Positions 13,850 to 47,879 of a stretch of DNA of 64,000 nucleotides are shown here, one piece after another. The notes below the pieces were generated by a model that saw nothing but the letters and a program-made list of their open reading frames with translations, was not told the DNA's origin and made no database searches. A program made the position numbers and the translations under genes. Origin of the DNA: Eubacteriales bacterium (GTDB lineage: Bacteria > Bacillota > Clostridia > Oscillospirales > CAG-272); assembly GCA_045120465.1 (NCBI GenBank), contig JBGVEW010000035.1:212-64211 (forward strand), in the 5' to 3' direction. The first letter of the stretch is position 1; each line of letters starts with the position of its first letter.

Positions 13850-14004
13850 GGCTTCTCCTTGGGTTCATCAGATTCAATTTATTATACCACGCTCCCTTGA
13901 AAAATGCAAGAAAAAGTCAATAAAATCGTCAACAATATCATTTTTTTCGCTTGACAATCCACCTGTTTTATGATATGATGAAACCCAAAGAGAGGGGTGA
14001 CGTA

Positions 14005-14856
14005 ATGGCAGGGAAAAATGAATTGCTGTTTGCGGACGAGAATTTTCCCATCCGAATCGATTTGAAGCGCGCATCGCACATCGATGACGTTGAGGATGCA
14101 AGGCGTGCACTTCACGAGGCGATTGAAATCAAATATTTTTACGAGGGTTCCTCTACCCTGCTCGTCGGTCGCAAAACCGTTGTGGCGCGGGCGGGCGACG
14201 TGATCGTCATCAACCCATACGAGTTTCACGCCACCGTGAACGATGAAAACTGCGGAAAATATCACCTCTTTATGATCTCTACCGATTTTTTTATCGGAAA
14301 CGACTCCGAAATTCCGGATCTCGTTCACAAGTTGCTCTCGGGGCAGCTCTCCTTTGTTACACACTTTGAGCGGGATGAATCGCTTTGCCGCATCCTGTCT
14401 TTACTGATGCAGGAGATGCAAGCGCAAAATCCTTATTTCCGCATTGCGGTGCGAGGGCTTGCAATGGAGCTTCTCTCGCATCTTTTGCGTCACGGCGTAC
14501 CGTCCGCCCCCACCGACGACAGCCGCGCGCATGCCGCTCGCCACTATGCGGTGGTAGAGCCCGCCCTGCGGCGCATCCGCGACGGATATGCGGAACGCTT
14601 GACCGTTGAGGAGCTTTCCCACCTTTGTGCCGTGAGCAAATTCCATTTTTGCCGCGTATTTAAGGCGGTTACGGGTATGACAGTCATGCAATATATCAAC
14701 GACTATCGCCTGACCATTGCCGACGTGACGCTCAAAAACACCGACCGCACCGTGTCTCAAATCTCTCACCTGTGCGGCTTTGAGGACGAAAGCTATTTTT
14801 GCCGTTGCTACAAAAAACGCTTTGGATACCCTGCGGGCAAGCGAAGAAATCGCTGA
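14005..14856 (+). CDS. AraC-family transcriptional regulator (cupin sensor domain plus HTH)
   Basis: ATG at 14005 follows AGAGGGG. The C-terminal dual HTH reads VEELSHLCAVSKFHFCRVFKAVTGMTVMQYINDYRL...ISHLCGFEDESYFCRCYKKRFGY. Confidence 0.85.
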   Translation: MAGKNELLFADENFPIRIDLKRASHIDDVEDARRALHEAIEIKYFYEGSSTLLVGRKTVVARAGDVIVINPYEFHATVNDENCGKYHLFMISTDFFIGNDSEIPDLVHKLLSGQLSFVTHFERDESLCRILSLLMQEMQAQNPYFRIAVRGLAMELLSHLLRHGVPSAPTDDSRAHAARHYAVVEPALRRIRDGYAERLTVEELSHLCAVSKFHFCRVFKAVTGMTVMQYINDYRLTIADVTLKNTDRTVSQISHLCGFEDESYFCRCYKKRFGYPAGKRRNR

Positions 14857-14893
14857 ATCCCCGTCTATAACGCATGAAAGGATCGATACCATC

Positions 14894-16900: not shown

Positions 16901-17797
16901 TCAGACCTCGTTGTAGATCCGCTTCATATTGGCAAAAGAGACGTGCGTGCCGTACTCACACTCCTCCATGCCCTCGTATTCCAGATAAATATCGCCGTCA
17001 AAATTCGAATTTTTGATGGTTTTCATAATATCCCAGATATCAATGTCCCCCTGTGCTAAGATCGAACCACGCAGGAACGTACCGTTGACCGAGCGGAACC
17101 AGGAATCCTCACAGTTAAAATCCTCAGCACCTCCGGGATCGCGGTGCGCGGGACGAAGATAAAAGTCCTTCATGTGAATGGTCTTGGCAAAGCCGATCAT
17201 CTTCTTTGCCGCGATTTCGGGAATATCGTCCACGCAGGTGTAGTTTCCAACGTCCATCTGGTGTCCCCAGTTTTCTCTCTTGACCGAGGTCAAAATCTGA
17301 CGAACGCGCTCGGAACCGTTGGCGTGGAAGCCGTGATTTTCCAACAGCACGGTAATTCCCATCGGCTTTGCATAGTCGCAAAGCTCCTCGTAGGTGCTCA
17401 CGATCAAGGGCAGCTCCGCCTGGAACTTTTCCATCGTGTTTTCGCTCATGGGGCGGCTGAACGCCGCAGAATCCACGCGCATGGTGGGAATCTCCATATC
17501 CGAAACCATTTCCATATGCTTTTTGACGCGCTTCATTTCGTTTGCATATCGCTCGTCATCCAACATCAAAAAGTTTGCGTTGAGCGAATAGTTTCCAATC
17601 GGAACACCGAGCTTTTGGGATGCTTCTTTAAAATCCTTTTTGAGTTCCGGAGTCTCAACCAAATTAAAACCGAACGGAACCAGCTCAACCACCTCTGCCC
17701 CCATAGCCGCAATTTTCTCAAACGCGGTGATCGGAGTCAATTCGCCCGTGCGGATCTTGCGCGAAACACCATAAATGGATATACCAAACCGTCTCAT
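16901..17797 (-). CDS. sugar phosphate isomerase/epimerase (xylose isomerase-like TIM barrel)
   Basis: 298 aa, ATG at 17797-17795 with AAAGGAG upstream. Pattern typical of the AP_endonuc_2 / TIM-barrel family (..VELVPFG.., ..TVLLENHGF.., ..IHMKDF.., ..YLEYEG..). Confidence 0.8.
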   Translation of the reverse strand: MRRFGISIYGVSRKIRTGELTPITAFEKIAAMGAEVVELVPFGFNLVETPELKKDFKEASQKLGVPIGNYSLNANFLMLDDERYANEMKRVKKHMEMVSDMEIPTMRVDSAAFSRPMSENTMEKFQAELPLIVSTYEELCDYAKPMGITVLLENHGFHANGSERVRQILTSVKRENWGHQMDVGNYTCVDDIPEIAAKKMIGFAKTIHMKDFYLRPAHRDPGGAEDFNCEDSWFRSVNGTFLRGSILAQGDIDIWDIMKTIKNSNFDGDIYLEYEGMEECEYGTHVSFANMKRIYNEV

Positions 17798-17880: not shown

Positions 17881-20800
17881 TTAAGCAGCCTCGTTTTCGC
17901 TCTCGTCTTCAGCCAGCAAGGACTGTGCCTTTGCTACGTAGAAATCGTAGAGCTCCTGCAAATCTGCCATGGATGCCTTATCCTCATCGGATACAACGTC
18001 TGCGTAGAGTGCCTGCATCTCACTGAGAAGCTCTTCTACACCGGCGCGTCTGGCTTCATCCTTCAGCACCTCATATGCAAGGCACTTCTGTTCCAGCTCC
18101 AGCATCTTCATGCCGACCAGAGCAACCTTTTCGGTAAATGCCTCCACCAAAAATTCCGCAACTGCCGCATAGTAGATGCTGTAATCGCTTTCCATCAGAA
18201 CGAACAGAGTCTGCTCGTCCACGCTCAACGCCGCATAACCCTTCATGACCGTAAGTACTTGCTCGCGGTCAAAGATGGTTTCCGTGGATTCGGGATCGCT
18301 GAGCATATACGTCCAAAGAACGTTGTACGCCAGATTCTCAAAGGTCTTGAGGTTGGACTCCTGATAGGAATCGTAGATTCCAACATCCATAAATTTATTC
18401 AGTGCCTCTACGTAGATGCCGCGATAAACGTTCATCATGTACTCAAAGGTGTAGGTCAGCTTGATCTGCTCGGTCATACCGCTTCCGTCCTCGGAAACGT
18501 CACCGTTACCACTCTCAACATCCTGATACTTTACGAACAAAGGTTCGTAGTAATAGATATTGAGGATCTCAGGATCGTTGCTGGACAGAATCTTTTCCTC
18601 AAGCAACAAAGCACGCTCGCAAGCACTCAAGAGCAGGTTGTACATGTCAACCTGCTTCTCGGTAATGATCATGTAAGAAAGCTCGATGACCTGGATTGCC
18701 TCGTCAAGTGCCAAGAAAGTATCCATCCATTCGCCTTCGGGGGGCATAACGGGCTCCTCAACGTCGTATCTTGCGCTGATGGCCAGATACTTGTTGTAGG
18801 TACCTAACAGCTTTTGTTCAAAGGTCGCCTTGTCGATCGGGTTCATGCCATCGTATGCAGCCTGAACTTTGGCAAGACGCGCACGGAAGTCATCCAACCA
18901 CGTATCGGAGGAGAAACGCTGTGCGTAAAGCTCCATTGCGATCACCAGCTCATTATAAGCCTCCTGTGCAGCCTCGTCGATAAACAGACCTCTGTAGTAC
19001 TCGTGCAGAAGATGAACGAAGAGGCAGGTCATATCCTCGGAGAAGCCCTCCATCTCAAATACCGCGTCAAATGCAAGAGGCGGGATGTTCATGGAGTAGT
19101 AAGGATTGATCGCAGCGAGGAAGTTGAGCTGACGGGTAGGAGTCAGTGCCACGTACATGGCAAACATTTCCTCAATTGCCGTCTTGTACTCATTGGACTC
19201 TCTGTAGGTCTCCTGCGTCATAATGTTGAACAGGATCTCCATGTAGTGATCCATCAACGCTTCATACTCGGGAAGATCCAAAAGCGCGCCGGAGTAGGTA
19301 TAGAAGCCGCCCTCGGTCGTGCGCAGATACTCGAGCATATCGTCAAAGTAGAAGGGGGTGCTGGGGTCAAGTCCCATCCAAACGTTAACGGGAAGGATCG
19401 CGTAAAGCTCTCGAACCATTGCGTTATCGCCGGAAAGGATCTCCTCTGCGGTGCGAAGTGCCATGTAGTAGTTGAAGAAGAAGTTGGAGGTATCCAACGT
19501 TTCAAAATTGGCAACGGCATCGATCTGCTCCAGTGCCAGGGTAATGTAGGATGCCAGCTCCTCAAACGCTACGGGCAGGTGTACGCTTGCAAGATTTGCA
19601 AGTGCCTCGTCGTTATCTACGAAATAGTAGTAGGAGTAAAGGATCTCGAACGCATCGTCCGCCTCACGCCACGTGGAAATGTGGTAGTAGATCTCGCTCA
19701 GAGAACCGTCTGCATATTCGCTTGCAAAAATGAAGTTGTAAGCCGCCTCGATCTCGGTGGCGTAGGTCGAAATACCAACCTCGTTCCAATCTGCCGGGAT
19801 CTCCTCAAAGAGCTCGTGCAGATCCAGCATATAGCGGAAGATCTCTGCCAGACTCTCGTAGATCTCCACGTCCAGAAGAGCAAACTCGCCAAAGGTGATG
19901 CCGGTGGTGAGCTCCTGCTTTTCAAACGCCGTAATGATCTTGGAAACCAGAGGAGTCATCGTATAGAGTACGTTGTCATCATCCTCAAGAACCTCGATTG
20001 CCGCTTCCATCGCCTCGGGAGTACGGCAATTGAATACCAAACCGCCCTCTGCAACCGTAAATGCATCGTCGAGAGCGATGATCTCGTCTTCGATCCGGCT
20101 CATACCGTAGGAGAACGCCGCACGTGCAACCGCCAAGCGTTCCTCGGTGGTGATAAACTGCGTTTCTGCCGGTGCCATATCGAGATACATCTCCATCAGC
20201 TCCAGAGCCTTTTCGCCAAGCTCCTCGGAAATCTCGGGCCACTCCTCAAGAGCGTTCTCCCAATTGATATCCGCAAACGCTGCCGACTCATCCTTAAAGA
20301 GGGAGATGTCGGTGTAGGTGAGCTTGACGGTAAAGGGATACTCCTTGCCATCAAATTTGACGGTCAGAGTCTGATCCTTTTTGGGATTGTCCTTGGTAAC
20401 CACGGAAAGATCAAATCCGGTAACCTCCACTGCCGCATCGGTCAGGGGAACGTCCTTTTCCAAAGCTCCGTTGTTTGCCTTCAGGGTCAAGTAACCGCCG
20501 GCAAGATCAAGACCGTTTGCGTGGCTATCGTAAGCGATCTTGTTGGGAGCGTGCAATTTTACTTCTTCAACCTCAAAAATCGTTACCTTAAAGGTGCAGC
20601 TGTAGGTCTCGCTGTCGGTCTCGTAGGTTGCGGTAACGGTGCAATCGCCCGCATTGTCGGAATCAAAGCCCTCGAGCTTTACCTTTTCGTTGTTGAGAAT
20701 AACGGTATAGGAAGAACCGTCGTCGCGGGTGATCTTCAAGCGTCCCTTGCCAAGATCCAATTCGTCACCTACAAAATAGTCGGTTACAAATTCAATCGCC

Positions 20801-21135
20801 TGCATTCTTTCTACCACGTTTACCGTGATTTCAACAGACTTACCGCCATAGGTCAAGGTAACCTTTTGGTCACCCGTTTTGCTCTTATCGTAGCCCGAAA
20901 CGGAAACGCCCGCATCGCTCATGGGAACCTCTTTGGTCTCTCCGTTTTGCACGACCTTCAATACACCGTTGGAAAGATCGAGATCGTTACCAACGATATA
21001 CATCAATTGGGGCATATCCTTGACCTCAAGGGTCAGGTCGCCACTCGCTTCCGGCTCGTCACCACAGGAGACCGCAGCAAACGCCAAAACGGCCACCATC
21101 AAAAGCAGGAGCGCGAAGGTACTGAATTTTTTCAT
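17881..21135 (-). CDS. lipoprotein with three N-terminal bacterial Ig-like (Big_3-type) domains and a ~800-aa acidic helical region
   Basis: Lipobox in MKKFSTFALLLLMVAVLAFAAVSCG. Three ~75-aa repeats follow the pattern (..GxxLDLxxGxLxV..G....V.....V.V.GxD....G...VT..Y...). GGAGG lies upstream of the ATG at 21135. Confidence 0.75.
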   Translation of the reverse strand: MKKFSTFALLLLMVAVLAFAAVSCGDEPEASGDLTLEVKDMPQLMYIVGNDLDLSNGVLKVVQNGETKEVPMSDAGVSVSGYDKSKTGDQKVTLTYGGKSVEITVNVVERMQAIEFVTDYFVGDELDLGKGRLKITRDDGSSYTVILNNEKVKLEGFDSDNAGDCTVTATYETDSETYSCTFKVTIFEVEEVKLHAPNKIAYDSHANGLDLAGGYLTLKANNGALEKDVPLTDAAVEVTGFDLSVVTKDNPKKDQTLTVKFDGKEYPFTVKLTYTDISLFKDESAAFADINWENALEEWPEISEELGEKALELMEMYLDMAPAETQFITTEERLAVARAAFSYGMSRIEDEIIALDDAFTVAEGGLVFNCRTPEAMEAAIEVLEDDDNVLYTMTPLVSKIITAFEKQELTTGITFGEFALLDVEIYESLAEIFRYMLDLHELFEEIPADWNEVGISTYATEIEAAYNFIFASEYADGSLSEIYYHISTWREADDAFEILYSYYYFVDNDEALANLASVHLPVAFEELASYITLALEQIDAVANFETLDTSNFFFNYYMALRTAEEILSGDNAMVRELYAILPVNVWMGLDPSTPFYFDDMLEYLRTTEGGFYTYSGALLDLPEYEALMDHYMEILFNIMTQETYRESNEYKTAIEEMFAMYVALTPTRQLNFLAAINPYYSMNIPPLAFDAVFEMEGFSEDMTCLFVHLLHEYYRGLFIDEAAQEAYNELVIAMELYAQRFSSDTWLDDFRARLAKVQAAYDGMNPIDKATFEQKLLGTYNKYLAISARYDVEEPVMPPEGEWMDTFLALDEAIQVIELSYMIITEKQVDMYNLLLSACERALLLEEKILSSNDPEILNIYYYEPLFVKYQDVESGNGDVSEDGSGMTEQIKLTYTFEYMMNVYRGIYVEALNKFMDVGIYDSYQESNLKTFENLAYNVLWTYMLSDPESTETIFDREQVLTVMKGYAALSVDEQTLFVLMESDYSIYYAAVAEFLVEAFTEKVALVGMKMLELEQKCLAYEVLKDEARRAGVEELLSEMQALYADVVSDEDKASMADLQELYDFYVAKAQSLLAEDESENEAA

Positions 21136-21153
21136 CGTTCAAATTCCTCCATA

Positions 21154-23943
21154 TTATTTGTTTTCATTGTTTTCAACGGTTTCCGTCCAAATCGCATACA
21201 GCTTTCTGCCGTCGGTTGCCTCGGTCAGCTTATCGGTTTGATAAGTTGCCTTGGTTGCCGCTGCGTTGGTGTCCCAACCGATGCAGGTATAGCCGTGACG
21301 CACGGGATTGGAAATCTTGTTACTGGTATTACGGTTGGTAATGCTCGTTGCCGACTTTTCAAAATACAAAACGTAGTCGCCATCCTCGGACAACGTGCAG
21401 TTCCACACAGCGGGACGGTAGGAGGAGTTCCAGAGAGGATCCCAATTTTCACCTGCCTTGTCGCTGACACAGAAGAAGGTCAACTCCGGACACCCGTAAA
21501 AGGCGTGTGCCGCAAGATTGACAAGACTTTCGGGCAGAATAACCGCCGTTAATCCCTTGCAATTGCGGAATGCCTGTCTGCCAATGCTCTCGATCGTTGT
21601 GGGAAGCACCAGCTCTTTAACAGGGCGGCAACCGTAAAAGGCAAAATTGCCAATTTCTTTTACGCCCTTCCCAAGCGTCAAGGTTTCGAGTGCCTCGCAC
21701 TTGTAAAACGCGTAGTTTCCAATGGTCGTAACACTATCGGAAATCGTAACAACCTTCAATTCGGGGCACTTATAAAATGCCTTTTCGCCAATGGTCTTAA
21801 CGCTCTTGCCAAAGGTAACCGTTTCCAAAACGGGACATCTGTAGAACGCTTTTTCGCCAACGGACTCCAAGCCATCCCCCATGATCACGCGCTTGAGGGA
21901 AGCGAAATTATAGAATGCGCTTCTGCCGATGGTCTTGACGCCGTTTCCGATACGGATCTCGTCGATACCGTACACCGTAAGGGTCATATCCTCGTCCATC
22001 TCGTACAAGCCGCTACCGTAAAAAGCGTAATCGCCGATGCTGACCACGCTGTCGGGAATGACGAGAACGTCCTGATCGCCATCCATCATGTCCTCACCCA
22101 TATAGATGGTACCGCACTTGTAGAAAGCGGAACGACCAATGCTCTTGAGCAGAGGAGGAAGCGTAAAGAGGGACAGATTGTTACATTGATAGAAGGTGTA
22201 ATCCTCGATGACCTCAAGGGTATCGGGAAGAACGACCGACGTCAAGCCACCGCAATCGTAGAACGCAGAGCGTCCCACGTATTTTACGGTATTGGGCATT
22301 GTAATTGAGGAAAGACCGTCGCATCGGTAGAACGCATAGTTTGCGATTCCCGCAGTACCGTCACGAACCTCAATGTCGCCCGTCAGTCCTTCGGTAAAAT
22401 CGACGATCCAGTTGCCTGCGTAAACCACGCCGCCCTCGGTATTCTTAAAGATACCGGAATTGCGGAATGCGTAAGAACCGATCGTTTGCACGCGGTCGGG
22501 GATCTCGATCTCTTTGAGCGATTCGCAATCGCGGAACGCGTAAGAGCCGATGACCTTTAAATTACTTGCCGTAATTTTGCCCGCATCCCAATCGTAAGAG
22601 CCAAGATATACGGCTTGAAGCTCCTTACATCCGACGAACGCCTGTTCGCCGATTTCCTCCACGCCGCTGCCGATAATGATACGCAAAAGCGCAGAAGCCC
22701 CCGCAAACGCCGCTTCACCGATATACTTCACACTATCGGGCAGCTCTACGTCCGCCAAATAGATGTTGCGATAAAATGCAAAGCTTCCGATACCAATGGT
22801 ATCAGGCTTCAGGGGCTGAGGCTGAATGGAAACGTCCTTCAATCCCAAGAACCACTTGCCTACGTAAACCTCGTTTTCCGCGGTGTTATTCCAAAGAGCG
22901 GTCTCCTGGAATGCACCGAGCGCAACGTTTCGGATGCCGGATCCCAAGGTGACGTTTTGCAGTGCCGCGCACTGGTAGAACGCGCCCTCACCGATCGACC
23001 AAAGCGTCTCGGGGAAGGTAACCGCGCTCAAAGCACTCGCTTCGGAGAACGCATACGGGCCGATCTCCAAAAGATTTGCGCCAAAGGTCACGGTTTTGAG
23101 TCCTGCGCATCCCGTAAACGCGTATTCACCGATCGAAACCAGTGCATCCGGAAGGTTCATGACTGTCAGTCCTGCGCAATCCGCAAATGCGTTTTCGGCA
23201 ATCGACGTAACCGCATCCCCCAAGCGGACCTCGGTCAGCTTGGCACAATACGCAAAGGTATTGGGCTGAATCACGGTAACGCCCGCGGGAACGGTGAGCA
23301 CGCCCTCCAAAAGACGGCAGCTTGCAAACGCGCTTTCTCCGATCGCGGTCAAATTTTTGGGGAACTGAACCGACTTCAGATACGAGCAATTTGCAAACGC
23401 AAACTTGCCGATCTCGGTCACGTTTTCACCGATCGTTACGCTGGTAACGTCACCCTTATTGAAGAATGCCTTGTCACCGATGCGGATAACGGGCTTGTTG
23501 CGGTAGGTCGCAGGGATCACGATGTCCCCTGTTGCAATTCCCTTGGAGCTGACCTCGTAAGCGTTTCCGTTATCGATCAAAGTAAACGCCATTCCCGGCT
23601 CACGCTCGCGGATAAAGGTTTTGGCTTCCGACCAAGGGGAATCCAACAGTTCCTCGCCTTTGCCGTTCGCCTTAACGGACACCTTGTACGTGCCCTCCGC
23701 CAGAAAAGCAAGATCATACTGCGTCTTGCTTGTGACGAATTCCTGCGCCTCTTTACCGTCCGCCTCAATGCGAACGGTATAGAGAAGCGCGTCCTTGACC
23801 TTGCCCCATGAATACGTAAGTGTCGTGGTATCGATCTCCGTACGCTCGGGAGTAGCGAGCGCAGGGGTCGTTTCACAGGCACAGAGCGTCATCATAAATA
23901 CAAGGGTTAAAATCAATATGATGTGCAAACGAATTGCTTTCAT
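21154..23943 (-). CDS. BspA-type leucine-rich-repeat (LRR_5) lipoprotein with a C-terminal InlB-B/Listeria-Bacteroides repeat
   Basis: Lipobox in ..VFMMTLCAC. Dozens of ~23-aa repeats follow the pattern (V..IG..AF..C..L..V.LP). The C-terminus reads HGYTCIGWDTNAAATKATYQTDKLTEATDGRKLYAIW. Confidence 0.85.
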   Translation of the reverse strand: MKAIRLHIILILTLVFMMTLCACETTPALATPERTEIDTTTLTYSWGKVKDALLYTVRIEADGKEAQEFVTSKTQYDLAFLAEGTYKVSVKANGKGEELLDSPWSEAKTFIREREPGMAFTLIDNGNAYEVSSKGIATGDIVIPATYRNKPVIRIGDKAFFNKGDVTSVTIGENVTEIGKFAFANCSYLKSVQFPKNLTAIGESAFASCRLLEGVLTVPAGVTVIQPNTFAYCAKLTEVRLGDAVTSIAENAFADCAGLTVMNLPDALVSIGEYAFTGCAGLKTVTFGANLLEIGPYAFSEASALSAVTFPETLWSIGEGAFYQCAALQNVTLGSGIRNVALGAFQETALWNNTAENEVYVGKWFLGLKDVSIQPQPLKPDTIGIGSFAFYRNIYLADVELPDSVKYIGEAAFAGASALLRIIIGSGVEEIGEQAFVGCKELQAVYLGSYDWDAGKITASNLKVIGSYAFRDCESLKEIEIPDRVQTIGSYAFRNSGIFKNTEGGVVYAGNWIVDFTEGLTGDIEVRDGTAGIANYAFYRCDGLSSITMPNTVKYVGRSAFYDCGGLTSVVLPDTLEVIEDYTFYQCNNLSLFTLPPLLKSIGRSAFYKCGTIYMGEDMMDGDQDVLVIPDSVVSIGDYAFYGSGLYEMDEDMTLTVYGIDEIRIGNGVKTIGRSAFYNFASLKRVIMGDGLESVGEKAFYRCPVLETVTFGKSVKTIGEKAFYKCPELKVVTISDSVTTIGNYAFYKCEALETLTLGKGVKEIGNFAFYGCRPVKELVLPTTIESIGRQAFRNCKGLTAVILPESLVNLAAHAFYGCPELTFFCVSDKAGENWDPLWNSSYRPAVWNCTLSEDGDYVLYFEKSATSITNRNTSNKISNPVRHGYTCIGWDTNAAATKATYQTDKLTEATDGRKLYAIWTETVENNENK

Positions 23944-23979
23944 CCGTTGCTCCTTTCAGACTACTGCTTGCATCACGCG

Positions 23980-26736
23980 TTACTTGCCCGACTCCGTTGT
24001 ACGAAGCTTGGCAGCAGCTGCGTCCGCTTTTTTCTGCTTGTGCTCTCTGATCAGCTCATGCGGCCACTTGAACTTGAACTTACGCACGGCAATGTCCAAG
24101 AGGAAGAGCACGATGGCCAAGATCAAAAGCGGGATACGGGGATCGTATTCCCTCTTTAACGTTTTTTCGAGATTTTGGAATACGTCCGCAGGGTCGTTGA
24201 TGATAAGTCCTCTGCCGTCGTTTGCCAACAGGGTCATCAGCTCCTCGCCCAAGGGAGTGCGCGTCGGGAACGCGTTATACTCCTCGGAATAGGAAAAGGT
24301 CTTGTAGAAGGACGTATCCGAAAGAAGCACGCCGTTTTCGTCGAACTTCTCGATCGTGACCTCGTAAAGTCCCGCATCCTTGATCTCAAACGAGAATCTG
24401 CGGTTGCCCTCCTGTGCCTTTACGGGAATGCCGCGATTGGCAAGCTCCGCCAAGGAAGCAGACAGAGGCTTTACGGAGACCTCGATACGATGATTTTCAT
24501 CCAGATTGTAAATATTGAGCTGCGTGGTGTAGTTGTCGGTCTTAACGGAATAGTCAAATCCGCCAACCTGTACGTCCTCCTTCGGGAAGATCGAGCGGAC
24601 GATGTTGGTAACGATCGCCTTACCGATCAGGTCCTCAACAAACGTACCCGACCACTCACCGTTCAGGTCACACATAAAGCTACCCACGTTACCCGCGCCG
24701 TATTTCCAATGTGCATAGATCGGAACGTATTTGCCCATCAGGGTAACGACTGCATCCTTTTTGGCAACCGTACCGTAGTAACCGGTCAGAGGCGGGATCG
24801 CATTTTGCGCAATACCTGCCACAACGGTGGTATGCTCCTTAATCTGAGGAATAAACTCCTCACCGTAAGCGATCTCGGGGATCGCTTCCAGTGCCAGATC
24901 CTGCTGCATGACCGTAGGAATGGTCTGGAGCTGGGACTGTGCAACGTTGTAGAACTTACCGCCGCCAAGGGTTGCAAGCTCGGTCATCTTTTCGCGCTTG
25001 CCCGCATCGATATCACCAACCGTAACAACGGACATGGTAATGCCCTTTGCCACGTTGATATCCGTAAAGTCCAGATAACCGACTCCGTCCTCGGTTCTTG
25101 CTTCGTCTCCGGGGTCACCGTCGGATACGATGATAATATGCTTACGCTCGACGTTGGTAATTGCCGAAAGTGCAAGTCCCGCACCCTCGATTGCCTTTGC
25201 GAAGATGGTACCGCCGCTTGCCTCGGTATTGTCGTCCACAGCTCGGATCGCTTCGCGGATCTCATCCCTGCGGGAAACCGGAAGAATCTGCAAGTTTTCG
25301 GTCGCCGCCTCGCTAAAGGAATAGACACCGCAGAAATCACGGTCGCTCAAGGTATCCAGACACGCTTCGGCACCCTCAATCGCCGCGGGAAGCTTACCCA
25401 TGCTCATAGAGCCAGAAGTATCCACAACGATCATCAATGCGATAGGAGGAGTAAAATCCACGGCGTTGATGGGAAGCATCTGCTTGTAGTAAGTGGATTT
25501 TTCCAGATCCACGCGGTTGTATGCGTGGGGCACCAGCGTTCCGTTGACCAGTTCGTTTTTACCGCCCACGGTAAACAAACCGCCGCCAAGGCTGTAAACG
25601 TACTCATTGAGCAGTTCCTCAAAGCCTGCGGGCATATCGCTGTAGGCAATGTTTGCCAAAATGACCTGTTCGTACTCTGCCATCTCCTGAAGCGTACGCG
25701 GGAACATATCCAGCTCCTTTTCCACGCTGAAGGAGGTAACCTTAAAGTTTTCGTTCAGAATTTCCTGAAGCTTTTGCGTCTCGTTTTCATAACGCTCAAG
25801 CAACAGAACGTTTTCGAATTCCTCCAGATTGATGAAGGAATGGTATGCGTTATTCTTGCTTTCGGTATCCTTGGGATGCGCGATCTCAAAGCGAAGCTCG
25901 TGCATACCTCTGGACTCCAGCAGGATGTTTATGGGAACGGTCTGCTCCTCCTGCGAAACGGTGATGGCGGTCGTTCCCAGCTTTTCACCGTTATCGTACA
26001 GGCTCAGCTCCAAATTCTGTTCACCCTTGCCGAAATTGCTTTTCAAAGTCACTTCCGCGGTAAACGCCTCACCGGGAATGACGTGTTGATCGGGCATCTT
26101 AACCGACAGGATCTGCATCTCCTCGGATTCGTTATTGGGATAGTAAACCGTATCCACCATAATGCCGTCGGCGGCAATTCCCTTGATCACGGCGGTAGCC
26201 GCTTGATCGGTTTCGATACCGTCCGAGATCAAAACGATCTTGGCGGATTCGGAATTGGTAAAGAGGCTTGCCGTGTACTCCAAGGCGGTAGCCAGATCGG
26301 TTGCCGTGGTATCGGGATCCTTGGAGGTCAAATAATTTTCATATGCATTCGTGGGGTCGTCCGTCAATTCGGCAACGTAGCTGCAGCCGTATCCGAATTT
26401 GACCACACCGACCTTGTAGTCGGTTCCGCAAATATTGATTACCGTTTGTACGAAATCATCCTTGTCCGCGCGAGTTCCCTCGGAGCTATCCGAAACGTCA
26501 ACCAGCAAAAGGATCTCGTTTTTCGCATTCGGAATCTCGTAGCGGAAGGAAATACCCGCCAAAAGGTTGATCGCAATGACCATAGCAATGCTGTGCAATA
26601 CCATGGAAACGATGCGGTTTCTGGTGCGGCGGTATTTTTTGTTCATCAAAAAATACGGAAGCAGCGTCAGAAGAATCGCCGGAATGATCAACAGCAACAG
26701 CCACGGATGAGTATAATTCAGTTGTAAATTCAGCAT
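23980..26736 (-). CDS. membrane protein with two von Willebrand factor A domains (BatB-like)
   Basis: N-terminal TM helices. MIDAS motifs are LLVDVSDSS and VVDTSGSM. The C-terminal TM anchor is IPLLILAIVLFLLDIAV. AGGAG lies upstream of the ATG at 26736. Confidence 0.85.
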   Translation of the reverse strand: MLNLQLNYTHPWLLLLIIPAILLTLLPYFLMNKKYRRTRNRIVSMVLHSIAMVIAINLLAGISFRYEIPNAKNEILLLVDVSDSSEGTRADKDDFVQTVINICGTDYKVGVVKFGYGCSYVAELTDDPTNAYENYLTSKDPDTTATDLATALEYTASLFTNSESAKIVLISDGIETDQAATAVIKGIAADGIMVDTVYYPNNESEEMQILSVKMPDQHVIPGEAFTAEVTLKSNFGKGEQNLELSLYDNGEKLGTTAITVSQEEQTVPINILLESRGMHELRFEIAHPKDTESKNNAYHSFINLEEFENVLLLERYENETQKLQEILNENFKVTSFSVEKELDMFPRTLQEMAEYEQVILANIAYSDMPAGFEELLNEYVYSLGGGLFTVGGKNELVNGTLVPHAYNRVDLEKSTYYKQMLPINAVDFTPPIALMIVVDTSGSMSMGKLPAAIEGAEACLDTLSDRDFCGVYSFSEAATENLQILPVSRRDEIREAIRAVDDNTEASGGTIFAKAIEGAGLALSAITNVERKHIIIVSDGDPGDEARTEDGVGYLDFTDINVAKGITMSVVTVGDIDAGKREKMTELATLGGGKFYNVAQSQLQTIPTVMQQDLALEAIPEIAYGEEFIPQIKEHTTVVAGIAQNAIPPLTGYYGTVAKKDAVVTLMGKYVPIYAHWKYGAGNVGSFMCDLNGEWSGTFVEDLIGKAIVTNIVRSIFPKEDVQVGGFDYSVKTDNYTTQLNIYNLDENHRIEVSVKPLSASLAELANRGIPVKAQEGNRRFSFEIKDAGLYEVTIEKFDENGVLLSDTSFYKTFSYSEEYNAFPTRTPLGEELMTLLANDGRGLIINDPADVFQNLEKTLKREYDPRIPLLILAIVLFLLDIAVRKFKFKWPHELIREHKQKKADAAAAKLRTTESGK

Positions 26737-26752
26737 CTTGTGTCAGCTCCTG

Positions 26753-28651
26753 TCAATAATTCTGTTTCGTTTGCAACGCCCACTCGGCAAACATCAAGGT
26801 TACCAGCGCGATCGCAAAATAGAAGAGCAGATCCTCAAATTCGATCTCGACCACGGTTTCCACGCTCATCATGGGAAGCGCGTCAACCTGCTTGGTAACG
26901 TTGCTTTCATAAGCGGGGATCGTTACAAAGAAGTTTTCGGTAATGAGCGCGTCCCCCTTCATCGTCTTCTGCGTTGCGGTATAGGTGCCGGGGCGCGTCA
27001 GCTTCAATTCCCCTACCGCATTCTCAAACAGGATCTCCTCACCGTTTCCTTCTACCTTCAGATCGGTTCCGCGTCCCGTCAGGGTTACGGTGTCACCGAT
27101 CTCAAAGGAGTTGGAGGTGAGCGTTCGGGGAATGAAATAATTGAACATATTGAACATCATAAACGAGAAATCGGGAATTGCACACAGGTTGGAATAGTTC
27201 AGGTCGAACGCCCAAACCACAACCTTTGCCCCTTGCTCATTCTTAACAAGGATCATCGGCTTACCGTTGTAGTACGCCAATTCCTCATATCCGTCACTCG
27301 AAATGATCTCTCGGTACTTTGCAATGGTGATTCGAGAGGAGTCCACGTAAGTCATCAAATTGTGAGGCGCACCCGTTGCCAGGGTCGTATCGCTCTTTAC
27401 GGGAACCGCTTCACCGATACGAAGACCCGAACCGTCGGGACCCTTGTCGGGGTCCACCAGAAGCACAACGCCGTCGGTGGGCATCACGTCGGGCATACGG
27501 TGCTCAAAGATGTAAAAATCAAAGCCTTCGGTTTCTACCGCCTCACCGTACGTACGCTGCACAAACTCAATGTTCCATGCGTTTTTCATTGTCTGACGCA
27601 TCGTGCGCACCATACCTGCGAAATAGTTGTTCGGGATCGAGCTCGAATACTGAACGCGGATGGTGGGCTTGGTTCCTCCGTAAAGGAAGAAGATGTTGTC
27701 ATCAACAAAGGAATCGTCAACCGAAATATAGAGCTCCAGATAATCGAAGGAATACAGTGCCTCACCGCCCATATCGTCGGTATTGAAACTGATGACCTTC
27801 TCTTCCTCTGCGGGATCGAAAAATTCGGTTCTCGTCAGCGTTTTGGAAGCCTGCGCGTTTCCGTTTACGCCGTGGATCTCACAGGTAACGGTTACCGTTT
27901 CGGTTCTGCCGTAGCAGCCGAGCTCCACGTTGATCTCGTAGTGGTTGTTCTCGTTCATTTCTGCCGTACAACCGAGAATTGCCGCGTTCCATTCGCCCGC
28001 CTCTGCCACGTTTTGAACCAAAATCTCATTCTTTTCAACGTATTCGGTTGCCGTAAAGAGGTGAACCTGTGCCTCATTGTTAAAGTTCAGCACGCTTTCG
28101 GACAATGCGACAGCCCCCTTGATGTCTGCCGAGCTGTAGGTACACTGCGTACCATCCGCCAACAGCGCATCAAACGCTGCGTTGATCGCATCCGTTTGTG
28201 AGGAGCCTGCTCGCTGGAACAGGAACTCGGAGTTGTCGTCCGCCAAAATGACCGACACGAGTCCTCCATCCTCCAAGGTGCCAAGCACCAATGCGCGTGC
28301 TTCGTCAACTGCGCGCTCAAAGCGCGTGCTGGCGCCGTTGGTAAGGCGCATACTTGCGGAGGCGTCGATGATGATGACCTTTTCATTTTCGTCACCGATC
28401 TTTTCATGCATCAACACGGGCTGTGCCAAAAGCAGTGCGCAGATGGTCAGAATCAGCACCTGGCACAAAAACAGCAGGATGTTTTGCAAACGGTTGATCG
28501 GCAACCGCTTTTTTCTGTATTTCAGACTCAATCTCCAGACAAAGGTACTGGAGATCATTTTTTGCTGATAATTAGGCTTGATGATATAAATGATGATCAG
28601 AGCAATTATACCGAGCAAACCCAAAAATCCTAACGGTGCTAACCAACTCAT
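26753..28651 (-). CDS. BatA-like protein (aerotolerance-regulator N-terminal domain plus VWA)
   Basis: The N-terminus MSWLAPLGFLGLLGIIALIIIYIIKP is characteristic of BatA_N. It has the VWA MIDAS motif IIDASASM and a C-terminal TM helix. Its start overlaps the DUF58 stop by 4 nt (ATGA). Confidence 0.85.
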   Translation of the reverse strand: MSWLAPLGFLGLLGIIALIIIYIIKPNYQQKMISSTFVWRLSLKYRKKRLPINRLQNILLFLCQVLILTICALLLAQPVLMHEKIGDENEKVIIIDASASMRLTNGASTRFERAVDEARALVLGTLEDGGLVSVILADDNSEFLFQRAGSSQTDAINAAFDALLADGTQCTYSSADIKGAVALSESVLNFNNEAQVHLFTATEYVEKNEILVQNVAEAGEWNAAILGCTAEMNENNHYEINVELGCYGRTETVTVTCEIHGVNGNAQASKTLTRTEFFDPAEEEKVISFNTDDMGGEALYSFDYLELYISVDDSFVDDNIFFLYGGTKPTIRVQYSSSIPNNYFAGMVRTMRQTMKNAWNIEFVQRTYGEAVETEGFDFYIFEHRMPDVMPTDGVVLLVDPDKGPDGSGLRIGEAVPVKSDTTLATGAPHNLMTYVDSSRITIAKYREIISSDGYEELAYYNGKPMILVKNEQGAKVVVWAFDLNYSNLCAIPDFSFMMFNMFNYFIPRTLTSNSFEIGDTVTLTGRGTDLKVEGNGEEILFENAVGELKLTRPGTYTATQKTMKGDALITENFFVTIPAYESNVTKQVDALPMMSVETVVEIEFEDLLFYFAIALVTLMFAEWALQTKQNY

Positions 28652-29547
28652 GCCATGATACCTACCTTAAGCAATTCTTTGAACAGTACCTTTTCGATAG
28701 GCTGATCGGTGCGAACGGTGATAAACTCCGCGCCGCGCGAATGACAAAACGTCTTCAACCCATCCACCAGCTCGTGCATTGCTTGCTCGTAAGCACTCTG
28801 GGATGCACGGTCGATCTTGAGCTTCATGTTTTTGGTATCGGCAACGTCCACCGACTCGGAGTCGATGAGGTTGACGCGTCCCATGTAAAGCGGATCGGTC
28901 TCCTCGGGGGTCATCACCTGAACCAAAAGAACCTGACGCTTTTTATAGCAGAGATAATCCACTGCTTTTTTCCAGTCGGAATCCGTAAAGAAGTCGGAAA
29001 TAATAACGGTAAGTCCGTCGTTGTTGCCCGTTGTGGGGCATCCGACAACCGCCTGGCGCAGATCTGCCTCTCCGTCAAAATTCATCTTTTCAAGCTCGCT
29101 GATCGCGCTGAAAAACGCCCGCTTGCCAACAATGGTGCCAAACGGATTTTTCGCCTTATCCTCTTTGATGAGTTGGAAAGAGACCTTGTCCATGTTATGT
29201 ACGGACAAGTATCCCAAGGCAGCCGCAATACCAATTGCGTAATTTGCCTTTGAGGGATTATCCTTTCCCATCGATGCCGAACAGTCGATAAAGATCTGCG
29301 TGTGCATCTGTCTCTCATCGGTAAAGAGCTTTAAGAAGAACTTTTCGAAGCGGCTGTACAGATTCCAGTCGATACGGCGGATATCGTCACCGAGCATATA
29401 CTCTCGATAGTCCGCAAACTCAACCGTTTGTCCGTACGTCCGCACCAGATGCTTTCCTCCGAAAAAGCCCGCAAGATCTGCGCGCAATTCCAGCGAAAGC
29501 GCTTCTAAACGACTGAAAAATTCATCGTTTAAGTAGGAACCCTTCAT
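28648..29547 (-). CDS. DUF58 domain protein (MoxR-associated)
   Basis: Carries the DUF58 signature FADYREYMLGDDIRRIDW. Its start overlaps the MoxR stop by 1 nt (TAATG). Confidence 0.85.
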   Translation of the reverse strand: MKGSYLNDEFFSRLEALSLELRADLAGFFGGKHLVRTYGQTVEFADYREYMLGDDIRRIDWNLYSRFEKFFLKLFTDERQMHTQIFIDCSASMGKDNPSKANYAIGIAAALGYLSVHNMDKVSFQLIKEDKAKNPFGTIVGKRAFFSAISELEKMNFDGEADLRQAVVGCPTTGNNDGLTVIISDFFTDSDWKKAVDYLCYKKRQVLLVQVMTPEETDPLYMGRVNLIDSESVDVADTKNMKLKIDRASQSAYEQAMHELVDGLKTFCHSRGAEFITVRTDQPIEKVLFKELLKVGIMA

Positions 29548-30626
29548 TATTTTCTCCCAAATACCTTACGCTTTTTCTCGGTGCTCTCAACCTCTTGGGG
29601 AGCATCCTTTTTGTCTTCCTTCTTTGCGTTATCTACGAGACCGTTCTTGCCGGCAAGCTCGTCGATGATCATCTTAACGATCTCATCAGCGGATACGCGC
29701 TCTGCAATTGCCTCGAAGGTCAGCTTCATTCTGTGTCTGAGAACGGGGTAAGCCAGCTCGTTGATATCGTTGTAAGAAACGTTGAATCTGCCGTTCATGA
29801 GTGCCTTTACCTTTGCCGCGGAGATCAAAGCCTGACCTGCACGGGGGGATGCACCGAGACGAACGTACTTCTTTGCAGCGTTGCTTGCGCACTCGCTGTC
29901 GGGGTGCGTTGCGGAGCAAAGGGTCATTGCGTAGCGCATCACGTCCTCAGCAACGGGGATCTGGTTTGCGGTAGCGCGCATCTCCAGCAGATCCTCGCCG
30001 TTACAAGCAGCGTCAGCAACCTCTGCCATGGTCTTTTGGGTCATGTTGACGATATCCATCAATTCATCCAGCGAAGGATTCTTAACGATGATCTTGAACA
30101 TGAAACGGTCCATCTGTGCCTCGGGCAGAGGGTAAGTACCGTCCTGCTCGACGGGGTTCTGGGTTGCCAGAACGAAGAAGGGCTCTTCCAGCTTTCTCGA
30201 AACGCCCATCACGGTAACGGTGTGCTCCTGCATTGCCTCAAGGAGTGCAGACTGGGTCTTAGGAGTTGCACGGTTGATCTCGTCCGCGAGAATGATGTTG
30301 GAGAAGATCGGTCCCTTTTGGAACTGGAAGCTGGAGTTGCCGTTATCGTCCTTTACGATAATGTTGGTACCCGTTACGTCGGCGGGCATCAGGTCAGGAG
30401 TGAACTGGATACGGGAGAACGGAAGGTTGAATACACGACCGAGAGAACGAACCAAACGGGTCTTACCGACACCGGGAACACCCTCCAAAAGCACGTTACC
30501 GCCTGCGATCATTGCGATAACCGCACCCTCGATAACTTCCTTTTGACCAATCACGTCTCTTTCGATCTGCTCAAAGATGTTTTTGCACTGCGTGCTGAAT
30601 TTTTGAATGCTCTGTTCTGTAACCAT
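29547..30626 (-). CDS. MoxR-family AAA+ ATPase
   Basis: Walker A is LLEGVPGVGKT and Walker B is IILADEINRATPKTQSALLEAMQE. The single AAA_3-type domain is followed by a lysine-rich tail. Confidence 0.92.
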   Translation of the reverse strand: MVTEQSIQKFSTQCKNIFEQIERDVIGQKEVIEGAVIAMIAGGNVLLEGVPGVGKTRLVRSLGRVFNLPFSRIQFTPDLMPADVTGTNIIVKDDNGNSSFQFQKGPIFSNIILADEINRATPKTQSALLEAMQEHTVTVMGVSRKLEEPFFVLATQNPVEQDGTYPLPEAQMDRFMFKIIVKNPSLDELMDIVNMTQKTMAEVADAACNGEDLLEMRATANQIPVAEDVMRYAMTLCSATHPDSECASNAAKKYVRLGASPRAGQALISAAKVKALMNGRFNVSYNDINELAYPVLRHRMKLTFEAIAERVSADEIVKMIIDELAGKNGLVDNAKKEDKKDAPQEVESTEKKRKVFGRK

Positions 30627-30698
30627 GATTTTTTCTACCTTACATTATTTATTTTTTTATTTTTTGTTTTGGGGTTATATCATCAATCCATAGGATTG

Positions 30699-31844
30699 TT
30701 ATATACTATCGAAATAAGCCTCGAAGAATTCCCGCAATTCGGGGGGAATCTCTCCGGTTTGTTCAAAGATCTCCATTGCCATCTCGTAATACATATCGAG
30801 CTGATCTCTGTAATATTGATTACCGTCGATAAACTGGTTGCTATCCTGCCATTTACCGCCGGCACCCGCACCTTGGCCATGCGCGCCGGAATTTTCTTTC
30901 CCCTGCTCTTCACCGCCGGAGCCGGAGCCTTGCGTGTCGCCTTCATCTCCGCCCTCTGCGTTACCGTCAGAGTTCTGATTTCCGTTTTCGCCTTCCTGTG
31001 CGTTTGCGTCGGAACCGCCGGGAACGTCGTCGGCTTGATCGCCTTCGTTGCCGCTCTCTCCGCCCTGCTCCTGACCGCCTTCGCCATCGCCTTCACCGTC
31101 GCCTTCGAGGATCTCCTCAAAAATAGCGGTAAAGACCATTTCTTCTTGTACGTTCTTTTCAGAACGCTCGGGCTGCTCGTAACCGTCATCCCAGCCAACG
31201 AATACCCAACCGTCCTCGGCAACCGCCACAACGGGAGTGGTATCCTCTCCGGGGAGCAACAGCTGATCGGCGACCCCCTGAATTTCGCCGCCCTCTTCCA
31301 CTACGTAGGAAACGGCGATGTAATTTGCCAACGGATCCTCAGGGTTGATGATCTCGTTAAAATTGGGAATCACGTCCTCTTCCGCAAGACCCGCGATCGT
31401 CGTCATACCCGAAGCCACCACTGCCGCGACAAGTGTCATGGCAATCAGAAGCTTGGAAAAACGCATACGGATTTTTTTGTTTGCAACGTCGCTCAAATGC
31501 TCCTTGGCATTCTCCCTCTGCAGCATGGCGATATAGGATTCATCATGTTCCAGCTCCAGCATGGTAACAACGCGCTCCTCCAGGCCCAAACGGTCTATGC
31601 GGCGCGCAATACTCTGCGTGGTGGGGCGGAATTTGGCAAAATAGAAGATGACGCCGCTGATGAGAGCGATACCCGCGCCGATGCCGATAGCGATCCAGAT
31701 TCCTTCAAAGTCGAAAATCCAAGCCGCCAAAGCCGCCAAAAAGTTAGCCGAAAAGCCAATGAGCAATCCGCAAAAAGCAGACTTGATCACAGCTTCCGCA
31801 ATCAATCTTGAATAATGTTTTTTAAAAAAGCGATTTTTAATCAT
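30699..31844 (-). CDS. membrane protein with an InlB-B-like repeat and a long acidic G/E/D/N low-complexity region
   Basis: Three predicted TM segments at the N-terminus, then WVFVGWDDGYEQPERSEKNVQEEMVFTAIF, then EGDGEGDGEGGQEQGGESGNEGDQ... It is the first gene after the terminator hairpins at 31879-31967. The SD is weak. Confidence 0.65.
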   Translation of the reverse strand: MIKNRFFKKHYSRLIAEAVIKSAFCGLLIGFSANFLAALAAWIFDFEGIWIAIGIGAGIALISGVIFYFAKFRPTTQSIARRIDRLGLEERVVTMLELEHDESYIAMLQRENAKEHLSDVANKKIRMRFSKLLIAMTLVAAVVASGMTTIAGLAEEDVIPNFNEIINPEDPLANYIAVSYVVEEGGEIQGVADQLLLPGEDTTPVVAVAEDGWVFVGWDDGYEQPERSEKNVQEEMVFTAIFEEILEGDGEGDGEGGQEQGGESGNEGDQADDVPGGSDANAQEGENGNQNSDGNAEGGDEGDTQGSGSGGEEQGKENSGAHGQGAGAGGKWQDSNQFIDGNQYYRDQLDMYYEMAMEIFEQTGEIPPELREFFEAYFDSI

Positions 31845-31878: not shown

Positions 31879-31967
31879 AATCCAAGCGGCGGCGTACCGC
31901 CGCTTGGATTGTTTCTTCTATCCCACAGCACCCGTGGGTGCTGTGGGTGGTGTCACCAAAAGGTGAC
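31879..31967 (-). terminator. three consecutive hairpins downstream of the 2,759-aa gene
   Basis: Hairpins at 31952-31967 (gtcacc-aaaa-ggtgac), 31922-31947 (cccacagcaccc-gt-gggtgctgtggg) and 31879-31910 (aatccaagcggcgg-cgta-ccgccgcttggatt). On the minus strand the last is followed by ccacctaattttta. Confidence 0.55.
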
Positions 31968-42843: not shown

Positions 42844-42848
42844 CCTAA

Positions 42849-43916: not shown

Positions 43917-43933
43917 ATCGTTTGTCGGAATGC

Positions 43934-45304: not shown

Positions 45305-45328
45305 TCTGATATCCCTCGAATTCGAGTT

Positions 45329-47863: not shown

Positions 47864-47879
47864 TACATCTCCTTATTTT

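Follow-up and report, generated by a model that had tools for sequence, protein, structure and literature searches.

A conserved MoxR-DUF58-VWA gene cassette with a linked leucine-rich-repeat lipoprotein in Clostridia, a candidate surface-organising system

To our knowledge, operons of the Bat and MRP type, which combine a MoxR ATPase with DUF58 and VWA proteins, are widespread and have gone for more than 20 years without an agreed function. The present analysis concerns a cassette of this kind in a 64,000-nucleotide (nt) stretch of DNA from a Eubacteriales bacterium (contig JBGVEW010000035.1 of assembly GCA_045120465.1), referred to throughout as the window. Seven genes on its minus strand, named A to G in their order, encode a membrane protein with three transmembrane (TM) segments (A), a MoxR ATPase (B), a DUF58 protein (C), a BatA-type VWA membrane protein (D), a double-VWA membrane protein (E) and two predicted lipoproteins, one built of leucine-rich repeats (LRR; F) and one carrying immunoglobulin (Ig)-like domains (G); the gene for a giant LRR lipoprotein (H) lies upstream of A. 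Coordinates are collected in Table 1. Across related loci the linkage of the LRR lipoprotein to this core is strongly conserved, not incidental, and looks functional.

Among described systems, the Bat operons of B. fragilis (BatI-BatE), Borrelia (BB0170-BB0176) and Leptospira share with the cassette a co-directional set of genes for MoxR, DUF58, a BatA_N-VWA protein and a second VWA protein. An AAA_3-type MoxR, a DUF58 protein directly after it and a BatA-type protein with a double TM segment and a VWA domain are all present here. TPR, SH3 or BatD partners (BatC/D/E) are not, with Pfam detecting no such domain in any of the seven proteins and none even at an E-value of 5 or below in A, D, E and G. 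Pfam thus confirms the Bat-like core lacking BatC/D/E that the first-pass annotation had described, and because these partners are missing the cassette is treated as a Bat/MRP-type variant rather than a Bat operon proper. Its VWA domains are predicted to face away from the cytoplasm, as in Bat (BB0173, PMC5700661). Unlike in Bat operons, D and E have two to three times the length of BatA and BatB, each with an additional C-terminal TM segment; E has two VWA domains and a GATase1-like region; the three-TM protein A is extra; the cassette is linked to LRR_5/Big_3 lipoproteins; its hosts are Bacillota, not diderms; and paralogous copies occur without MoxR and DUF58.

MRP-type operons, such as R. 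leguminosarum RL3499-RL3502 and that of M. tuberculosis MoxR1, share the ATPase subfamily and the DUF58/VWA neighbours. Their phenotypes are envelope-related or concern the chaperoning of secreted proteins (RipA; PMC4810496), and in contrast to the cassette they have no link to LRR or Ig surface lipoproteins. The PFNA cluster of bifidobacteria (pkb2-fn3-aaa-atp-duf58-tgm; PMC8430577, PMC6803598) resembles the cassette in its Gram-positive gut host and in combining MoxR and DUF58 with a large adhesin-like FN3 protein, but lacks the BatA-type VWA membrane proteins. Conversely, the cassette has no Ser/Thr kinase, no transglutaminase membrane protein and no PFNA-family FN3 protein, and Pfam detects neither kinase nor transglutaminase domains, whether in the seven proteins or in those encoded directly beside them. 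The first-pass annotation had called the linkage of such a core to surface lipoproteins uncharacterised. Full-text literature searches, which may have missed a paper in a subscription journal, yielded no description of this cassette, while the PFNA cluster, a MoxR/DUF58 operon with an adhesin-like gene (PMC8430577), is a partial precedent, so the claim stands with that qualification.

Remodelling or cofactor insertion by MoxR/VWA chaperone pairs is established (NorQD: PMC9976466, PMC13036017), and NorQ/NorD, CbbQ/CbbO and RavA/ViaA, each an AAA+ MoxR hexamer with a target-engaging adaptor that bears a VWA domain and its metal ion-dependent adhesion site (MIDAS), offer a template for MoxR plus DUF58. 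These pairs are wholly cytoplasmic and act on a defined enzyme, whereas in the cassette the classical VWA domains are predicted to be extracytoplasmic and the candidate clients are surface proteins. Integrin alpha-I/beta-I domains serve as a working analogy, with membrane-anchored ectodomains, an intact DxSxS...T...D MIDAS and short conserved cytoplasmic tails; homology is limited to the VWA fold.

All seven minus-strand open reading frames (ORFs) lie where the first-pass annotation had placed them, and its domain calls and junction spacings agree with the recomputed ORFs and Pfam results. From the coordinates, A and B are separated by a 72-nt gap, B and C overlap by 1 nt and C and D by 4 nt, followed by gaps of 16 nt (D-E), 36 nt (E-F) and 18 nt (F-G). 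The 129-nt gap between H and A has a folding energy of -63.9 kcal/mol (z = -8.96), a stability reached by none of 200 shuffles, and the 83 nt beyond G contain one stem-loop of -29.4 kcal/mol (z = -5.66), so that the flanking hairpins noted earlier prove real by folding. No clean coding-strand T-run (U-tract) follows any of these hairpins. A generic promoter and terminator consensus scan is no richer than in shuffled sequence, and the limits of the transcription unit are therefore drawn from hairpins and spacing. Searches for Rfam families and tRNAs in the window found none.

Related loci were collected in two scans of one-genome-per-species contigs with E as anchor, which gave 349 and then 485 species with a relative, and were annotated by phmmer and hmmsearch with the window proteins and family profiles; 122 distinct loci were left once those fetched twice had been dropped. 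Proportions below refer to loci with room, meaning enough sequence to judge the feature in question. A homolog search with E gave close relatives only (56-100% identity) and was of no use for defining an outgroup; outgroups were reached by a scan with a mixed alignment headed by a distant E sequence, while a single distant E homolog (P0450) as scan query gave no matches.

The order H-A-B-C-D-E-F-G is shared across the 122 loci. F stands directly 3' of E in 99 of 113 loci with room (97 F orthologs and two F-like LRR genes), and the remaining 14 are 13 outgroup loci and one at an assembly gap. MoxR and DUF58 precede D in 77 of 85 loci, an H-like giant LRR gene lies upstream of A in 65 of 79, and G follows F in 59 of 98. 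The survey had been set beforehand as the test of whether the neighbours vary freely, and it shows the linkage of F to be fixed. The giant LRR gene reported upstream by the first-pass annotation is present, with LRR_5 and Flg_new domains, and its adjacency is likewise conserved. The description of the whole module as hard-wired suits F but overstates the case for G, which is an accessory member, and for MoxR and DUF58, which are missing from eight cassettes. The constant members are A, D, E and F; the ATPase is not among them.

Spacing is conserved together with order, the median distances being 48 nt (A-B), -1 nt (B-C), -4 nt (C-D), 14 nt (D-E), 17 nt (E-F) and 16 nt (F-G), against 194 nt between H and A. 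A 60-nt segment folding at -20 kcal/mol or lower is found in 96% of 49 H-A gaps, compared with 58% of genic control segments. The conserved tight spacing, set against the wide and hairpin-rich H-A gap, marks A to G as one operon-like unit, in line with the tight packing claimed earlier; H is a conserved neighbour that is probably separately terminated or processed. Flanking genes differ between related loci, and about 100 species-level genomes have the cassette. Among the most distant G homologs, three (27-33% identity) sit in cassettes that are kept while the downstream genes are wholly different, and an identical cassette is present on a contig of another Clostridia metagenome-assembled genome (MAG; GCA_045129315.1). 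NCBI labels of the carriers include Oscillospiraceae, Christensenellaceae, Pumilibacteraceae, Candidatus Gallimonas, Candidatus Scatosoma, Candidatus Limihabitans and Subdoligranulum sp. CAG:314, and NCBI taxonomy lists Candidatus Gallimonas and Candidatus Scatosoma under 'Clostridia incertae sedis'. The one carrier in culture, Anaerocaecibacter muris CLA-AA-M11 (our locus L185; Pumilibacteraceae), was placed in GTDB f__CAG-552 (10.1101/2022.03.07.483007).

Eight cassettes have the order H-A-D-E-F-G without MoxR and DUF58 (L004, L016, L017, L018, L021, L023, L038 and L061), and two keep MoxR while DUF58 is missing (L022 and L039). A neighbour-joining tree of E without bootstrap values unites six of the eight in a single clade that is sister to the window's group, a grouping that points to a paralogous cassette lineage rather than assembly errors. 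Four share an assembly with a full copy (L016 with L051, L018 with L010, L023 with L073, L061 with L034); the assembly of L038 has a second cassette on another contig (L232), where the stretch is cut inside the cassette before the MoxR/DUF58 region can be read. F proteins of the MoxR-less clade lie at a mutual distance of 0.40 and at least 0.52 from any other F, their clustering indicating that whole cassettes duplicate and diverge as units. G has been lost repeatedly, and the gene 3' of F is then unrelated (a permease or a nucleotidyl transferase) or encodes a 1,500-1,730-aa Flg_new protein.

The outgroup loci come from MAGs with the labels Erysipelotrichales, Bacilli, Acholeplasmataceae/Tenericutes, Lachnospiraceae and, in some cases, Clostridia. 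F is missing from them, while MoxR, DUF58, D, E and a longer A of 420-560 aa are present. Among these 13 F-less loci, the gene after E encodes a CotH-kinase-domain protein in all six that were examined (labels Erysipelotrichales, Bacilli, Acholeplasmataceae, Tenericutes and Eubacteriales), three times together with Flg_new; full-text literature searches found no description of a CotH-MoxR/VWA linkage. Giant proteins with ten Big_2, seven Big_3 or fn3 domains lie near the outgroup cores, Ig-repeat giants occurring in at least three loci. Since distant Bacillota have the core without F, the LRR partner is clade-specific and the core older. A-B-C-D-E is thus the ancient core, and the slot after E holds a surface partner that differs by lineage yet is repeatedly extracytoplasmic.

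Evolutionary rates separate the proteins as well, and A, D, E, F and G diverge together. Mean pairwise distance is 0.19 for MoxR, 0.30 for DUF58, 0.55 for E, 0.58 for D, 0.60 for F, 0.62 for A and 0.72 for G, while the correlation with the distance matrix of E, a value inflated by shared ancestry, is 0.36 for MoxR, 0.66 for DUF58, 0.89 for D, 0.81 for F, 0.83 for A and 0.87 for G. Fast predicted-exposed proteins beside slow MoxR and DUF58 fit what would be expected under the predicted topology.

MoxR (B) matches AAA_3 (PF07726, 4e-62) and AAA_lid_2 (1e-18) in Pfam, and its Walker A and Walker B motifs are invariant in 51 of 51 orthologs. DUF58 (C; PF01882, 2e-33), whose gene start overlaps the MoxR stop by 1 nt, retains a DxSxS motif in 62 of 62 orthologs; it has no NCBIfam family and no relatives in a PDB sequence search. 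A hydrophobicity scan shows no TM segment in either protein, and both are predicted to be cytoplasmic.

D carries a BatA domain (PF07584, 9.8e-9; 36 bits against a cutoff of 25.9) and VWA_2, arranged as a BatA_N double-TM hairpin, the VWA domain, an ectodomain of about 400 aa of unrecognised fold and a C-terminal TM segment. Its MIDAS is partly degenerate among 80 orthologs, with D96 in 77 (Glu in the other three), S98 in all 80 and S100 in 54. E, with VWA/VWA_2 matches over two stretches and a weak GATase1_like match, consists of an N-terminal TM hairpin, VWA1, VWA2, the weak GATase1-like region, a C-terminal TM segment and a basic tail. VWA2 has the full MIDAS (D439/S441/S443/T510/D539) and VWA1 has D-x-S/T-x-S/T in 82 of 82 orthologs. 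The tail peptide RKFKFKWPHELIR is nearly invariant, its residues being kept in about 80-82 of the 82, and is recognisable even in relatives at about 30% identity. E has 1,209 related representatives at an E-value of 1e-30 or below, a PDB sequence search with it returned nothing useful, and NCBIfam matches of D, E and F all lie far under the model cutoffs. The E MIDAS, the DUF58 DxSxS motif, the MoxR Walker motifs and the E tail are, judging from this conservation, functional motifs under selection.

D and E share a plan of a Lys/Arg-rich N-terminal TM hairpin loop, a large body and a C-terminal TM segment. From the hydrophobicity scan and positive-inside reasoning, the latter inferred from the sequences, the basic hairpin loops and the basic tail of E predict a location outside the membrane for both bodies with all their VWA domains, and likewise for residues 151-381 of A. 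This orientation agrees with that of Borrelia BB0173, a BatA-domain VWA protein found by experiment to face the periplasm (PMC5700661). In two Lachnospiraceae MAGs (L178 and L195) a single 1,439-aa ORF replaces D and E; in L178 its Pfam profile of BatA_N, three VWA stretches and GATase1_like marks it as a D-E fusion, which may be read as Rosetta-stone-type support for D and E working together.

Protein A begins with a TM hairpin and continues with a predicted cytoplasmic helical hairpin (76-121), where conservation peaks (residues 81-120), and a third TM segment. The predicted extracellular part comprises a beta domain (176-244, Flg_new_2 at 8.7e-6), an acidic disordered linker (248-329; 32% Gly, 25% Asp plus Glu) within a Gly/Glu/Asp-rich stretch (residues 245-335), and two conserved C-terminal helices. 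Its AlphaFold2 (AF2) model has a mean predicted local distance difference test (pLDDT) of 66.6. Foldseek detects no structural relative in PDB or BFVD (no match at an E-value below 0.4), NCBIfam has no family for it, and its 297 homologs are all of similar size. In public annotation A is 368 aa long and begins 13 codons 3' of the ATG used here; homologs of 375-378 aa align across all 381 aa, favouring the longer form. One locus (L024) has a tandem pair of A-like genes (364 and 368 aa), and in two others (L176 and L199) ORFs of 855-1,027 aa after F have A-like matches, possibly via shared Flg_new_2 alone.

Signal peptides ending in Cys start F, G and H, which are predicted to be lipid-anchored. 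Among 79 F orthologs 70 show a lipobox-like pattern, as do 51 of 60 G orthologs, and the signal Cys of G is conserved in at least 90% of sequences. F (LRR_5 4e-164 over seven stretches, with a weak C-terminal Flg_new) and H (LRR_5 1.9e-218) are BspA-like in having tandem LRR_5 with predicted lipobox-type signals, their surface exposure being a prediction. The N-terminal non-LRR domain of F (residues 23-125) matches 83 ORFs, 83 of 83 at the F position, and in that search never H or other LRR genes, which identifies F as a true orthologous family rather than any LRR gene. G (Big_3 1.4e-18) is modelled by AF2 with three Ig-like domains (36-273) and, C-terminal to them, an all-alpha domain of about 800 aa (pLDDT 88.3, predicted template-modelling score 0.71), the latter with a net charge of -113 and 7.4% Tyr. 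Foldseek aligns only the Ig-like N-terminus of the model in PDB and BFVD (query-normalised template-modelling score at most 0.12), and structural relatives of the helical domain were not detected in these databases, which makes it, like protein A, a candidate new fold. G has no NCBIfam family and about 70 full-length homologs (26-62% identity), all of 1,050-1,180 aa. In BFVD its Ig-like domains are matched best by entries named 'Leucine rich repeat protein' on uncultured Siphoviridae contigs (19-23% identity over about 270 columns), indicating that similar Big_3 plus LRR proteins are present on contigs annotated as phage, or else on bacterial sequence wrongly binned as such.

The reading we prefer, tentatively and at somewhat below an even chance, is that the cassette specifies an extracytoplasmic VWA platform that docks surface lipoproteins and is assembled by cytoplasmic MoxR and DUF58. 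D and E, each held by a TM hairpin and a C-terminal TM segment, would present their VWA/MIDAS domains on the outer face and, with the three-TM protein A, would make up a platform on which lipid-anchored proteins are docked or organised: always F, usually H and often G. Acidic residues contacting the MIDAS metal, an arrangement known from other VWA-ligand pairs, are a plausible means of docking. MoxR and DUF58 would work as an AAA+/VWA-like chaperone pair, reaching the platform via three conserved cytoplasmic segments (the BatA_N loop, the RKFKFKWPHE tail of E and A's helical hairpin) in order to assemble or activate it. Action of the pair in trans on a second cassette would account for the paralogous copies that have neither gene. 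While gene content, order, conservation, motif integrity and co-divergence are observed, and topology and lipoprotein status are predicted from sequence, we infer all these physical interactions and the role of MoxR and DUF58. The first-pass idea that the AAA+/VWA machinery could assemble, anchor or remodel an LRR/Ig complex at the surface agrees with the predicted topology and the conservation of motifs. A surface role for a VWA protein has a counterpart in Borrelia, where BB0172, encoded in a Bat-like locus, is an integrin-binding surface adhesin as cited in PMC5700661.

Several points weigh against this platform. MoxR and DUF58 would stand on the opposite side of the membrane from the VWA domains, so coupling could pass only through short cytoplasmic segments, and we know of no precedent for coupling across the membrane in MoxR systems. 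Neither G, absent from about 40% of loci, nor F, absent from the outgroups, can be essential to the core function. The degenerate D MIDAS is a further difficulty, H, separated by hairpins, may be regulated independently of A, and the correlations with E carry the inflation already mentioned. The data come nearly all from MAGs with mechanically called ORFs.

A bolder version of the platform, which we rate as quite unlikely, is an integrin-like inside-out surface machine, in which a MoxR/DUF58 motor acting on the tails of A, D and E would toggle MIDAS binding and release of the LRR and Ig lipoproteins.

The alternative that survives best, although we think it unlikely, takes the core A-MoxR-DUF58-D-E as a generic Bat-like envelope-maintenance or stress module, with F, G and H co-inherited or co-regulated and no physical complex formed. 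Such a module would accommodate the core without F in 13 outgroup loci and the absence of G from 39 of 98 loci. It also has parallels elsewhere: Bat homologues of Leptospira and Borrelia have envelope or stress phenotypes and no adhesin partners (PMC3557215, PMC5700661), the Rhizobium leguminosarum RL3499-RL3502 operon is likewise without them as far as its citation in PMC5700661 goes, and the P. aeruginosa MoxR/VWA cluster Arc2 (PA4317-23) defends against the toxin ColA (PMC8926400). The placement of F argues otherwise, since it follows E by about 17 nt (16-18) in 99 of 113 loci, even where E identity has dropped to about 40% and flanks differ, co-diverges with E, duplicated cassettes included, and has its counterpart in outgroups that also put secreted proteins in the slot after E. 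Such fixed order is unusual among functionally unrelated genes.

MoxR and DUF58 might instead act before export, as a cytoplasmic chaperone for the giant LRR and Ig lipoproteins, with D, E and A as receptor or release factors. M. tuberculosis MoxR1 binds secreted RipA and is needed for its export (PMC4810496), and H, G and F are unusually large secreted proteins encoded beside an ATPase gene. Their signals are nevertheless of the ordinary Sec/lipoprotein kind, not twin-arginine, H, F and G are still encoded in cassettes without MoxR and DUF58, and the invariant extracellular E MIDAS is left unexplained, which makes this proposal improbable.

Far more doubtful is a surface motility 'leg' apparatus like that of Mycoplasma mobile gliding (Gli349, Gli521, Gli123), driven by the ATPase via membrane connectors. 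It draws on the combination of giant surface proteins, membrane-spanning proteins and an ATPase, on the core in wall-less Acholeplasmatales and on a partial NCBIfam match of F to Gli349 (3.9e-29). That match is far below the model cutoff (100 bits against 1,750) and covers LRR_5-like repeats only; MoxR is missing from the paralogous cassettes, homologs of the F1-like gliding motor are not found, and the accessible part of the description of the cultured carrier (10.1101/2022.03.07.483007) reports no motility. Chance adjacency of an abundant LRR_5 gene to a MoxR/VWA operon, suggested by three such genes (929, 2,759 and 2,614 aa) within the 64-kb window, is refuted by the locus counts and the F-specific N-terminal domain, which place an orthologous F in the same slot of 97 distinct loci with varying flanks.

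Three other assignments were rejected. PADLOC returns no defence system, only weak AAA matches; a MoxR-vWA-beta-propeller conflict system does not fit B, on which bpMoxR scores 9e-11 against 4e-62 for AAA_3, and there is no propeller; and a second cassette upstream, which adjoins H only in the closest relatives, is not a member of the unit. This second cassette is a conserved surface-protease plus peptide-importer-like module, made up of an S8 subtilase, a Flg_new protein, an unusually long SBP_bac_5 protein and Opp genes, with OppF next to H in those relatives. Of the 80 related loci fetched, most carry the S8/Opp set too, Anaeroplasma, Bacilli and Coprobacillus MAGs among them, and a 'Christensenella sp.' MAG with a closed 1.65-Mb chromosome (L156; CP091723.1) that carries it is a possible complete-genome reference for cassette counts. 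Remaining genes of the window are listed in Table 1.

Table 1. Positions of the cassette, its neighbours and selected features of related loci. Positions refer to the window unless a locus number (L) is given.
Feature	Position	Strand	Description
BNR_2 (sialidase-like propeller) + GLUG ORF	9905-13156	plus	1,083 aa, large secreted-type protein
Three consecutive ORFs	13882-16663	minus	559, 164 and 160 aa; no Pfam match
AP_endonuc_2 gene	16901-17797		xylose-isomerase-like TIM barrel; upstream of the three ORFs without Pfam match
Stem-loop 3' of G stop codon	17835-17867	minus	downstream boundary of unit
G	17881-21135	minus	1,084-aa predicted lipoprotein, Big_3 + helical domain
F	21154-23943	minus	929-aa predicted LRR_5 lipoprotein
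E	23980-26736	minus	918-aa double-VWA membrane protein
D	26753-28651	minus	632-aa BatA_N + VWA membrane protein
C	28648-29547	minus	299-aa DUF58 protein, VWA-like DxSxS motif
B	29547-30626	minus	359-aa MoxR AAA+ ATPase, MRP/AAA_3 kind
A	30699-31844	minus	381-aa three-TM membrane protein, Flg_new_2
H-A gap stem-loops	31879-31967	minus	three, GC-rich; terminator- or processing-site-like, without clean U-tract
H	31974-40253	minus	2,759-aa predicted lipoprotein, 12 LRR_5 stretches + 4 Flg_new repeats (Pfam)
Second conserved cassette (S8/Opp)	40625-56818	minus	surface-protease plus peptide-importer-like
OppB/C/D/F	40625-45304	minus	
SBP_bac_5	45329-47863	minus	844 aa, unusually long (Pfam)
Flg_new protein	47880-48977	minus	365 aa (Pfam)
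S8 subtilase	48974-56818	minus	2,614 aa; PA, fn3_5, Big_2, LRR_5
CotH gene after E	L166:12620-14407		outgroup Bacillota MAG
CotH gene after E	L167:11711-13555		outgroup Bacillota MAG
CotH gene after E	L169:12653-14617		outgroup Bacillota MAG
CotH gene after E	L171:12721-14673		outgroup Bacillota MAG
CotH gene after E	L172:12644-14479		outgroup Bacillota MAG
CotH gene after E	L194:12392-14263		outgroup Bacillota MAG
1,439-aa ORF replacing D and E	L178:3258-7577		Lachnospiraceae MAG
1,439-aa ORF replacing D and E	L195:8195-12514		Lachnospiraceae MAG
Tandem A-like genes	L024:3475-5990		364 and 368 aa

The cassette gives Bat-type modules fixed candidate clients in the form of orthologous LRR, giant LRR and Ig/helical lipoproteins. 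It also comes with natural experiments, namely cassettes without MoxR and DUF58 and outgroups in which CotH replaces the LRR protein, and the cultured carrier Anaerocaecibacter muris makes the proposal testable. Most carriers are gut Clostridia that have not been cultured, and contact with host, mucus or particles is probably made by their surface proteins. If the inside-out machine were true, the cell could control adhesion or the organisation of its surface coat, and Bat/MRP-type MoxR-DUF58-VWA operons would have a first concrete mechanism. The cassette would then represent a new class of surface-organising system in gut Bacillota, wall-less lineages included.

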